Below are positions 52,308 through 52,960 of a stretch of 64,000 nt of DNA, one piece after another (the stretch's first letter is position 1; each line of letters starts with the position of its first letter). Source of the stretch: an uncultured Alphaproteobacteria bacterium. GTDB taxonomy: Bacteria > Pseudomonadota > Alphaproteobacteria > Rs-D84. The notes beneath the pieces were generated by a model. The model was not told the origin of the DNA and did not search any database. It saw nothing but the letters and a program-made list of their open reading frames with translations. The stretch lies in NCBI GenBank assembly GCA_944389135.1, contig CALXLG010000002.1, positions 24,362 to 88,361 on the forward strand, read 5' to 3'. A program made the position numbers and the translations under genes.

Positions 52308-52381
52308 TGGGGTGTCGTCTAATGGTAGGACAAGAGATTTTGGTTCTCTTTATCATGGTTCGAATCCGTGCGCCCCAACCA
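52308..52381 (+). tRNA. tRNA-Gln (anticodon TTG)
   Basis: 74 nt: acceptor TGGGGTG/CGCCCCA, anticodon loop TTTTGGT, T-loop GGTTCGAATCC, encoded CCA. Confidence 0.85.
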
Positions 52382-52960
52382 AAAATTAAATCGTCCTTGT
52401 GACGATTTTATTTTTGGGCGTGGGTTAATCGGTTCGGCCATACAACGAAGTTGTTTGGTTCGAAAATTTGTATATAAAAACAAGCAAAGCGCAGTTTGAA
52501 TAACTACAAATTTGCGCGCAGGCATAACATGCCGAGCGAATTAAGTGCGCCCCAACCAAAAATTAAACTGCCCTTGCGGCGGTTTTATTTTTGGGCGTGG
52601 GTTAATCGGTTCGGCCACACAACGAAGTTGTTTGGTTCGACAATGAGTAGGTTTGAAAAGCAATGCGCCTTCAAACCGTCACGAATGCCCCGCAGGGCAA
52701 TGCCCGAGGGAATTAAGTGCGCCCCAACCAAAAATTAAATCGTCCTTGTGACGATTTTATTTTTGGACGCGGGTTATCGGTTCGGCCACACAACGAAGTT
52801 GTTTGGTTCGAAAATTTGTATATAAAAACAAGCAAAGCGCAGTTTGAATAACTACAAATTTGCGCGCAGGCATAACATGCCGAGCGAATTAAGTGCGCCC
52901 CAACCAAAAATTAAACCGCTCTTGTGGCGGTTTTATTTTTGGACGTGGGTTATCGGTTCG
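52382..52960 (+). repeat. Tandem array of three ~175-bp units, each carrying a copy of the tRNA-Gln 3' end plus terminator hairpin plus a conserved tail
   Basis: 'gtgcgccccaaccaaaaattaaa' occurs at 52368 (the tRNA), 52545, 52717 and 52892. Each copy is followed by a GC hairpin + 'ttttatttttgg' and a 'gggttaatcggttcggccacacaacgaagttgtttggttcga' block. Units 1 and 3 are near-identical over ~175 bp. Confidence 0.8.

Follow-up and report, generated by a model that had tools for sequence, protein, structure and literature searches.

What has set a row of tRNA ends behind an intact tRNA gene? The question is raised by positions 52355 to 52960 of the 64,000-nucleotide stretch of DNA analysed here (the window), which belongs to contig CALXLG010000002.1 of an uncultured Alphaproteobacteria bacterium and carries, behind tRNA-Gln(UUG), a tandem array in which the 3' end of that gene occurs four times in all. 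A preliminary description took the array for the trace of repeated site-specific integration and excision at a tRNA attB, or of tandem amplification of an att site, and its units for copies of the tRNA end with its terminator. We find that three of the units also contain a conserved, structured, non-coding element of about 110 nt, here called E, and that a strict link to tRNA 3' ends, with the end of the local tRNA as the tail, is common to E and its relatives. The explanation we favor, at a probability of roughly 45%, is that E is a non-autonomous insertion element specific for tRNA 3' ends, which was amplified here by repeated insertion and unequal recombination.

The array is built on a 23-mer, GTGCGCCCCAACCAAAAATTAAA, which consists of the last 14 nt of tRNA-Gln (the 3' strands of the T stem and the acceptor stem, plus ACCA) and 9 nt of trailer. 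Exact copies start at 52368, 52545, 52717 and 52893, with 0 expected from 100 shuffles, and a terminator-like hairpin with a T tract stands behind every one of them (Table 1). Together with the agreeing ARAGORN and Rfam calls of the tRNA, these copies and their terminators bear out the initial identification of the 23-mer as the tRNA-Gln 3' end; two of the three extra copies had been placed correctly and the third one nucleotide off, at 52892. The terminator stems vary across units by compensatory changes (TCGTC/GACGA, CTGCC/GGCGG, CCGCT/GGCGG). Tandem Repeats Finder reports 52368-52960 as 3.4 copies with a period of 177. The repeat common to all four copies is 81 nt long: it opens with a T-loop-like CGAAT, takes in the tRNA end, trailer and terminator, and closes with ...CGGTTCG. 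A unit of about 175 bp is this repeat (tRNA 3' end, terminator, leader) plus E. A conserved block first put at about 45 nt measures about 42 nt and occurs three times; the fourth unit stops after GGTTCG at 52960. Units 1 and 3 are nearly identical (97.7%) and unit 2 differs from either (about 82% identity), as had been noticed. A higher-order period of 348 bp, with 52407-52604 and 52755-52952 93% identical, therefore gives the array the order A-B-A'-(stub of B'). The variable part of E copy 3 is 100% identical to that of copy 1, and that of copy 2 is 70% identical to the A-type and nearest to the single E of three relatives, L007-L009. In a scan of 52100-53100, the only good plus-strand promoter match is that of tRNA-Gln. 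Copy number is assembly-dependent at such repeats: a short-read contig from another sample (L001) ends at this repeat, and the exact copy number in any assembly is therefore to be taken with care.

E is organized as a leader, P0 (ACAAC-GAA-GTTGT), the motif TTGGTTCGAC, P1 with the conserved loop AAGCAANGCG, the motif ACGAATGCCCCGCAG, P2, CGAG(G/C)NAAT and the tRNA tail. A covariance model of E, termed R1, was used to align 18 E copies, and three hairpins are backed by covariation: in these related sequences, fitted to the structure of the model, standard pairs fill 92.7% of cells, a share that drops to 30-53% once the partners are displaced by 1-3 columns, and both-sided changes occur at 10 of the 18 pairs, with none of 500 shuffles reaching the observed values. 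At P0, L010 has CGACA-TTTA-TGTCG and L022 has GCAAC-GCA-GTTGC instead. E copies and homologues keep no common reading frame: L003 and L005 have ATG-led frames other than that of unit 2, and the ATG is missing from the A-type copies and from L004. The open reading frames (ORFs) at 52496-52738, 52713-52907 and 52844-53038 are therefore artefacts, as was suspected from the start, and it is the hairpins that are conserved in place of the frame. A small peptide was considered for the ATG-led ORF of 29-37 aa found in some copies and rejected on the unconserved frame and the copies without ATG. E has no terminal inverted repeats, and it is flanked by 14-81 nt of tRNA sequence and not by a 2-10-bp duplication. 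Two further structural candidates were dropped: a hammerhead-like core (CUAUGAG...CGAAU), judged by eye, had no Rfam support, and a closing helix that GGCCACAC forms with the Gln tail in some folds is not kept in the copies behind tRNA-Tyr described below.

Large collections were searched by exact words or via neighboring proteins. An exact search of a one-genome-per-species collection with a 33-mer of the E block found one related metagenome-assembled genome (MAG), the uncultured alphaproteobacterial L002, which has the same MarR-tRNA-Gln ... tRNA-Glu synteny and two units. MarR homologues led to 18 further loci (L007-L024), on which an nhmmer profile of E and R1 were run. By these models E lies right behind the tRNA-Gln terminator in the lineages of L002, L007-L015 and L022/L023, which make up most of the syntenic relatives compared and comprise the nearer ones and one distant lineage (MarR identity 60-85%). 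One full E is present in L007-L012 and L022, and L002 has one full E and a truncated copy, E0. In L013 and L014 there is only E0, which stops at model position 97 and is followed by ATTTTTATTC. L015 has two full E, a cassette with a 111-aa ORF bounded by 41-nt repeats, and E0. The site is empty in the distant relatives L019-L021 (MarR identity 63%), where the tRNA-Gln terminator is followed by an unrelated gene, with no E and no tail copy. Across the relatives and the window, full E copies behind tRNA-Gln number 0-3, and the comparison of array length proposed in the preliminary description thus reveals variation. In L016/L017/L018 and L024 an unrelated insert, X, occupies the place of E, and R1 finds only E fragments further along these arrays. 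The single E of L010 matches the A-type variable part at about 85% identity and that of L007 the B-type at about 86%, while A and B are 70% alike, so two old variants are present together in the window. Just ahead of tRNA-Glu in L016 (4352-4422, minus strand) and L018 (3881-3948, minus strand) stands a truncated E-like piece (..GCAACCAACGGTTGCCGGTTCGAAAACAAGCAG..) followed by CCCCAACCA, which looks like the oldest and most decayed unit of those arrays.

The same design is found behind other tRNA genes of these gut bacteria, and there the tail of E matches the local tRNA: GTGCGCCCCAACCA behind tRNA-Gln and AATCCACCCACTCCCACCAAAA behind tRNA-Tyr. A metagenome search with a 21-mer from E returned four contigs (L003-L006). 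In L003, E lies behind tRNA-Tyr and is followed by a copy of the tRNA-Tyr end, and L004 is similar; in L005, E lies between two Gln-like 3' fragments, and L006 has a truncated E stub only. L006 was also considered as a full-length element bearing cargo and rejected, since the clade contains 506 close homologues of its HD protein and the gene lies away from tRNA-Gln in relatives. That E is single-copy in other species, and stands behind tRNA-Tyr with a Tyr tail, leaves unsupported the reading of the units as only the att sites or terminators of vanished islands. What holds of the original interpretation is an insertion hot spot; the units are not bare duplicates of an att site or terminator, as the E of about 110 nt lies between the copies of the tRNA end. 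The possibility had also been raised that the units occur genome-wide without linkage to tRNAs, and they are indeed dispersed but without exception linked to the 3' ends of tRNAs.

Three of the four tRNA genes of the window carry such inserts (Gln, Arg, Trp), and tRNA-Glu is empty. The Arg insert begins directly after CCA, contains four hairpins, and is homologous to the tRNA-Glu insert of L013/L015, which ends in the tRNA-Glu tail. The Trp insert contains a terminator and a diverged relative of E (R1 32.1 bits, E-value about 1e-6), and the 18-nt tRNA copy that follows is itself followed by the native terminator and then secE/nusG. Insert X behind tRNA-Gln of L016, L018 and L024 is likewise structured and followed by the Gln tail, with stems that covary between L016 and L024. 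In the Arg and X inserts the fold consists of a closing stem (the 5' end with tail positions 58-65), 3-4 hairpins, and a free 11-nt end made of the acceptor strand and NCCA. A T arm in reverse complement is found in several inserts, as ACAGGAAGCGAACCT at Arg and as GGGAATCGAAC at Glu and Trp. Exact repeats of the tRNA end, 14-23 nt long, are found at five tRNA species; they start in the T loop or just after it, at tRNA position 58 (Arg, Tyr, Glu), 59 (Trp), or 61 or 63 (Gln), and end either with CCA or as much as 9 nt past it. The copied last 14 nt begin 104 nt (Arg) or 156-172 nt (first copy, other tRNAs) past the tRNA end, and further out in a nuclease-gene unit of L026 (368 nt) and for later copies within arrays.

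Three observations on these loci stand apart. An ORF at 1380-1880 of the window that crosses the Arg insert matches nothing in Pfam, and its call is probably too long. The inverted T arm that opens the Arg insert was considered as self-primed complementary DNA of the tRNA and rejected: the Glu-linked homologue likewise has the CAAAGG beyond the T arm, which is therefore part of the element's core. A post-terminator sequence, GGTTTTTTGTTkGATTTCTAATAT...GTTCGAAAG, is common to contigs with different tRNAs (L003 5345-5960; L005 540-460 and L022 4530-4470, both minus strand) and in L003 is met again 560 nt further on, together with a third copy of the tRNA-Tyr end. It is a candidate for a further conserved module of the arrays.

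A nuclease gene occupies the same position in some relatives. In L018 and L024 the array includes an 81-aa GIY-YIG gene (PF01541), followed by the right-end module of E and a Gln tail. In four of four further lineages examined, a GIY-YIG gene (80-81 aa) lies directly behind a tRNA (Table 1); homologues are mostly on very short contigs. A conserved, structured leader of about 100 nt, termed Y, precedes the gene in every case and starts exactly after CCA, which in L018 and L024 is the CCA of a Gln tail copy. RNAalifold predicts that the tRNA CCA and the first three leader bases (CCACCC) pair with GGGUGG, and L026 covaries at this helix (CAC/GUG). In some Y copies the ribosome-binding site lies within the 3' strand of the last leader hairpin. 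In L026, the unit of leader and GIY-YIG gene is flanked by a 21-nt repeat of the tRNA-Gln(CUG) end. Neither Y nor the GIY-YIG gene is present in the window, and no Rfam match was found for Y. Behind tRNA-Ser(CGA) of L034, a gammaproteobacterial MAG, the leader is tandemly duplicated (1101-1369), and the second copy is without the first ~20 profile positions. Derivation of the 5' block of E from leader hairpin B was considered and rejected, the resemblance (GCCACAC..GAAGTT..TT) being too short.

Table 1. Coordinates of the tRNA-Gln array, of the other tRNA-linked inserts of the window, and of tRNA-leader-GIY-YIG loci in relatives
Sequence	Feature	Position	Strand	Remarks
Window	Promoter-like site of tRNA-Gln	52268-52295	+	TTGCAA, 16-nt spacer, TATAAT
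Window	tRNA-Gln(UUG), intact	52308-52381	+	ARAGORN (ttg) and Rfam agree
Window	Repeat copy 1, 81 nt	52355-52435	+	T loop to tRNA 3' end, trailer, terminator 52388-52408 and T tract, leader ...GGGTTAATCGGTTC
Window	E copy 1 (A-type)	52436-52544	+	P0 (ACAAC-GAA-GTTGT), motif TTGGTTCGA, P1, P2, end ...CGAGCGAATTAA; 134.8 bits over 52429-52565
Window	tRNA 3'-end copy 2	52545-52612	+	23-mer 52545-52567, terminator 52565-52585, leader
Window	E copy 2 (B-type)	52613-52716	+	152.7 bits over 52606-52737
Window	tRNA 3'-end copy 3	52717-52783	+	23-mer 52717-52739, terminator 52737-52757, leader
Window	E copy 3 (A-type)	52784-52892	+	136 bits over 52777-52913
Window	tRNA 3'-end copy 4	52893-52960	+	23-mer 52893-52915, terminator 52913-52933, leader stub ending GGTTCG
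Window	Terminator-like hairpin at 3' end of 380-aa gene	52994-53029	-	Right-hand context of array
Window	tRNA-Arg(CCU) with insert	1337-1529	+	tRNA 1337-1412; insert of 98 nt 1413-1510; exact copy of last 19 nt, ATTCCTGTTGGGGATACCA, 1511-1529
Window	tRNA-Trp with insert	23720-23974	-	tRNA 23974-23901; insert of 163 nt 23900-23738; exact 18-nt copy, TTCCTTCTGCCCCTGCCA, 23737-23720
L018	tRNA-leader-GIY-YIG locus	4006-4578	-	
L024	tRNA-leader-GIY-YIG locus	4078-4552	-	
L026	tRNA-leader-GIY-YIG locus	2320-2780		tRNA-Gln(CUG)
L030 (Amorphus coralli)	tRNA-leader-GIY-YIG locus	2116-2743		tRNA-Tyr
L034	tRNA-leader-GIY-YIG locus	1019-1743		tRNA-Ser(CGA)
L039	tRNA-leader-GIY-YIG locus	1326-1746		tRNA-Thr(GGU)

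From these observations we infer that E is mobile, that its enzyme is supplied in trans, and that the array grew by a combination of insertion and recombination. Elements of the E family would insert at the 3' ends of tRNA genes and leave the tRNA intact, which would put E between the tRNA (with or without its terminator) and a second copy of the last 14-22 nt of the tRNA. A site-specific reaction in the segment from T loop to CCA would duplicate that segment or bring it in. E encodes nothing and would therefore be moved by an enzyme made elsewhere, and its conserved hairpins may be cis-acting features needed by that enzyme or by a single-stranded intermediate. Variants A and B could have come to stand in tandem via two insertions into a regenerated target or via an old duplication, and the A-B block would then have been duplicated by unequal homologous recombination between the 81-bp repeats to give A-B-A'-stub. 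The loss of a unit in L013 as compared with L002 would fit recombination between E copies. Candidates for the enzyme are the small GIY-YIG nuclease that occupies the same slot in relatives and a tyrosine integrase crossing over in the T loop.

Several points weigh against this explanation. A tblastn search found no GIY-YIG gene in the window, and no trans-acting enzyme was found there. The 81-aa GIY-YIG protein of the relatives is without a DNA-binding domain, and homing by a GIY-YIG nuclease alone does not explain the direct repeat. No near-identical pair of genomes was found that differs by one E with clean boundaries, which would have caught an insertion in the act. The repeat at tRNA-Gln, at 81 nt including the terminator, is longer than any simple target duplication. 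The pair counts come from an alignment fitted to the structure of the model and from related sequences, and when folded singly the Gln copies have weak z-scores (-1.5 to -1.7), with stronger values for the inserts at Arg (-3.4) and Trp (-2.2). E behind tRNA-Gln also diverges roughly in step with its host, as judged by MarR identities of 60-85%, and this co-divergence fits long vertical residence under selection, that is, a host function, as well. The tail does not depart from the tRNA even as divergence elsewhere in E reaches at least 30%, and this fits continuing mobility and a functional RNA alike.

A host function is the core of one of two alternatives that we regard as unlikely though worth serious consideration. 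On this account E, the Arg/Glu-type inserts, the Trp insert and X are resident genes for small structured RNAs whose 3' end is necessarily identical to that of the neighboring tRNA, with the array arising by tandem duplication together with the terminator; they might act as a decoy, as a processing or CCA-dependent substrate, or as a tRNA-like RNA without a 5' acceptor strand. The covarying structure persists across hosts down to 60% MarR identity, and the tail is exact in most copies even where at least 30% of the rest has changed. The tRNA-sense strand folds better than the opposite strand in four of four pairs tested, and the few wobble pairs in E are G-U on that strand. The folds of the Arg and X inserts, with their free acceptor-strand-NCCA end, also suit such an RNA, and no terminator precedes the Arg insert, so this insert should be co-transcribed with the tRNA. 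The Gln-type copies of the window, however, all lie behind a good intrinsic terminator and have no promoter-like site of their own. There is, moreover, no evident cause for a functional tail to match the upstream tRNA unless it were copied from it. E is absent in L019-21, truncated in L002, L013, L014 and L015 (E0) and reduced to a stub in L006, and its copy number ranges from 0 to 3; nor does it match an Rfam family. A search of Rfam 15 with the array, the whole window and six related loci returned tRNAs only, with nothing at gathering score in the array (E-value <=1) and nothing at E-value <=0.1 in six related loci that hold E, X and Y.

The second alternative, which we judge about equally improbable, stays closest to the preliminary description: islands or phages with tyrosine integrases entered repeatedly at the tRNA-Gln attB, with crossover in the T loop and each with a tRNA 3' end of its own, and then decayed or were deleted, so that attL/attR pairs with short arm remnants were left and E would be a conserved arm region or a small attP-side gene of one element family. 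Direct repeats from the T loop to the 3' end of tRNAs are the textbook signature of such integrases, reportedly set out by Williams in 2002. The interval from tRNA-Gln to tRNA-Glu is hypervariable, its gene content differing in nearly every relative and including foreign-looking genes (NERD, Mrr, APH, HD), and both the 111-aa ORF cassette of L015 with its 41-nt repeats and a recombinase-borne island of L014 lie at tRNA-Gln. The latter is a 5.2-kb island (264-5850) inside the tRNA-Gln CCA end that codes for a 511-aa large serine recombinase (Resolvase, Recombinase, Zn_ribbon), an OmpA-like protein and unknowns, and it is missing from L013 and L015, whose MarR protein is identical to that of L014. 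At the window's tRNA-Arg, the insert opens with ACAGGAA, which forms an inverted repeat with TTCCTGT, the 3' strand of the T stem, on the other side of the 11-nt acceptor/CCA segment, and the two resemble a pair of core-type binding sites.

Yet no tyrosine integrase adjoins any of about 25 E, R-type and X copies, no integrase of any kind lies beside an E in L002-L024, and none is present in the window, where a scan of 39 ORFs out of the 49 that reach 110 aa, among them all above 191 aa, found no integrase, transposase, reverse transcriptase, GIY-YIG or other nuclease. The original remark that no integrase gene survives nearby can thus be extended to the scanned ORFs of the 64-kb window. The sole recombinase seen, that of L014, is of the serine type and has a different junction (AACCA, no E); the island ends are ...CCCCAACCA/GTTAATACG and AAAGGTC/AACCAAAAAT, the slash marking the junction. 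Independent decay would not yield one architecture of about 110 nt at Gln and Tyr in many species, and stems that covary while loops stay constant would be unexpected for protein-binding arm sites. Five tRNA tails in one family would need five integrase specificities, and an excised circle of 117-175 bp would be very small for an integrase. BLAST of the array against phage and plasmid collections matched only the body of tRNA-Gln, and in IMG/VR the 23-mer and the E block were without match and the GIY-YIG protein without relative. A 16-mer of the Y loop had 22 matches in IMG/VR, but the nhmmer profile confirmed 0 of them as Y, so they are most likely due to chance. A CRISPR array or a ToxI-like antitoxin array was also considered and rejected on the wrong unit size, the lack of unique spacers, and the lack of a cas or toxin gene.

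A wider form of our favored explanation, in which E would be an insertion element, is rather less likely than either of these alternatives. It would join the Gln/Tyr-type E, the Arg/Glu-type, Trp and X inserts and the leader-GIY-YIG unit in one undescribed superfamily homing to tRNA 3' ends. The single-stranded form would be tRNA-sized, with a closing stem, 3-4 hairpins and a free acceptor-strand-NCCA end of the host tRNA; the tail, with or without the antisense T arm, would serve in targeting or priming, and mobility would be nucleic-acid-guided or retro-type with a tiny GIY-YIG nuclease, and not of the integrase type.

A retro-mobile origin taken by itself seems very unlikely to us. E RNA, with the 3' sequence of the tRNA as its end, would be made by read-through from the tRNA, copied by a reverse transcriptase encoded elsewhere and inserted by target priming, with the 18-22-nt repeat as target-site duplication, making E a bacterial counterpart of short interspersed nuclear elements. 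The repeats are fairly uniform (14-23 nt) at five tRNA species, and the elements are non-coding, structured and NCCA-tailed. GIY-YIG nucleases serve Penelope-like retroelements, a point that PMC1564403 makes for non-long-terminal-repeat retrotransposons, and in L025-L029 an RVT_1 gene (1-184) lies about 2.1-2.3 kb upstream of the tRNA-Gln(CUG)-leader-GIY-YIG unit, with two genes between. All of this is circumstantial. No reverse transcriptase lies in the window or beside any E, there is no poly-A or other mark of reverse transcription, and the tRNA-Gln repeat spans trailer and terminator, which are DNA-level features outside the mature tRNA. Plain tandem duplication of the tRNA 3' end and spacer by slippage or unequal crossing-over, with no element involved, is the least probable account: the head-to-tail copies of regular period, the 97.7% identity of units 1 and 3, the 348-bp super-period and the gain and loss of units among relatives fit homologous recombination and may explain the amplification of the A-B block, but as a full explanation it is contradicted by the junction ...CGAG(G/C)NAAT plus tail, which is not derivable from the single-copy state (E0 then ATTTTTATTC) and recurs at single-copy loci, behind tRNA-Tyr with a Tyr tail and after the GIY-YIG gene, and by the same design at tRNA-Arg and tRNA-Trp of the window.

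Known systems share some of these features. The cis-mobilisable elements (CIMEs) of Streptococcus thermophilus are mobilized without an integrase of their own. Like CIMEs and other integrative elements at tRNA genes, E leaves the tRNA intact, is bounded by direct repeats from the T loop to the 3' end, stands in rows at a hot spot, and is non-autonomous, so that an enzyme would come in trans. Unlike them, its units are 100-175 bp and not kilobases, no copy has an integrase nearby, and the insert is a set of conserved, covarying hairpins in one family with tails for different tRNAs. Integron arrays, a further parallel by analogy only, are rows of variable cassettes with a structure-conserved end site, added at one primary site. 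E arrays resemble them in having rows of variable cassettes that are non-coding or carry one small gene, an end site conserved more in structure than in sequence, and a single primary site; they differ in that this site is a tRNA 3' end, in lacking IntI, and in having a short hairpin, CGAGSNAAT and the tail in place of attC.

The GIY-YIG homing endonuclease SegB of phage T4, encoded in the phage tRNA cluster, recognizes a site that includes a T-psi-C stem-loop motif (PMC2330249), and when recombination follows breaks by SegB, a unit that contains tRNA is amplified in tandem (PMC13096335). By analogy, the small nuclease of the relatives may cleave the T-loop region of tRNA genes that have no element. 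In T4/T6 as here, a GIY-YIG gene lies among or behind tRNA genes, the motif in the site is where the E repeats begin, and a unit with tRNA sequence is amplified in tandem. SegB has a DNA-binding part, whereas the protein of the relatives is an 80-aa catalytic domain only; minimal stand-alone prokaryotic GIY-YIG domains are discussed in PMC1564403. SegB homing is also not described as leaving repeats of the tRNA end, and the window has no GIY-YIG gene; the link to E lies, in two relatives, in the same position and the same right-end module. MITEs (miniature inverted-repeat transposable elements), REP/REPIN sequences and Rickettsia palindromic elements are likewise small, non-coding, multi-copy and foldable, with the enzyme encoded elsewhere. 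The usual definition of MITEs includes a 2-10-bp target duplication (PMC11602168), and E differs in the absence of terminal inverted repeats, in a flank of 14-23 nt of a specific tRNA and in its strict link to tRNA 3' ends. E has none of the features that define these classes, namely an adjacent integrase, a nuclease gene in the unit, or a short duplication together with terminal inverted repeats. Literature searches turned up no account of mini-elements with a tRNA tail, nor of a module of leader and GIY-YIG gene. The E family may be an undescribed group of tRNA-targeting mini-elements.

The surroundings of the array are those of a core chromosome, with rpoB/C, ribosomal L1/L10, nusG, gyrA, leuS, yidC and an AcrB/OEP/MarR efflux operon in the window; VirB8-, VirB9/CagX- and VirB10/TrbI-like genes (24148-28971, plus strand) adjoin the tRNA-Trp locus. 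The flank downstream of the array stub, after 52960, is also present in L002. The interval to tRNA-Glu holds in the window (52961-56285) a 380-aa unknown, a 477-aa HD-domain protein and a 171-aa protein, for which PADLOC gave no match and NCBIfam nothing useful. The same interval is empty in L002 and L013 and elsewhere holds 472-aa and 491-aa unknowns, NERD, APH, Mrr, HD or a 669-aa unknown.

Copies of tRNA ends beside tRNA genes are normally passed over once they have been read as island scars. In the present case, what the scars enclose is a family that is conserved, structured and non-coding, with a tail matched to each tRNA. Whether the family is mobile or not, such arrays interrupt short-read assemblies at tRNA loci and may be mistaken for ORFs in annotation. 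If E is mobile, the family would be an unusually small class of site-specific bacterial element, with the 80-aa GIY-YIG nuclease, whose leader is predicted to pair with the tRNA CCA end, as a concrete candidate enzyme; if it is not, the family would be a new class of tRNA-linked RNAs with tRNA-like 3' ends.

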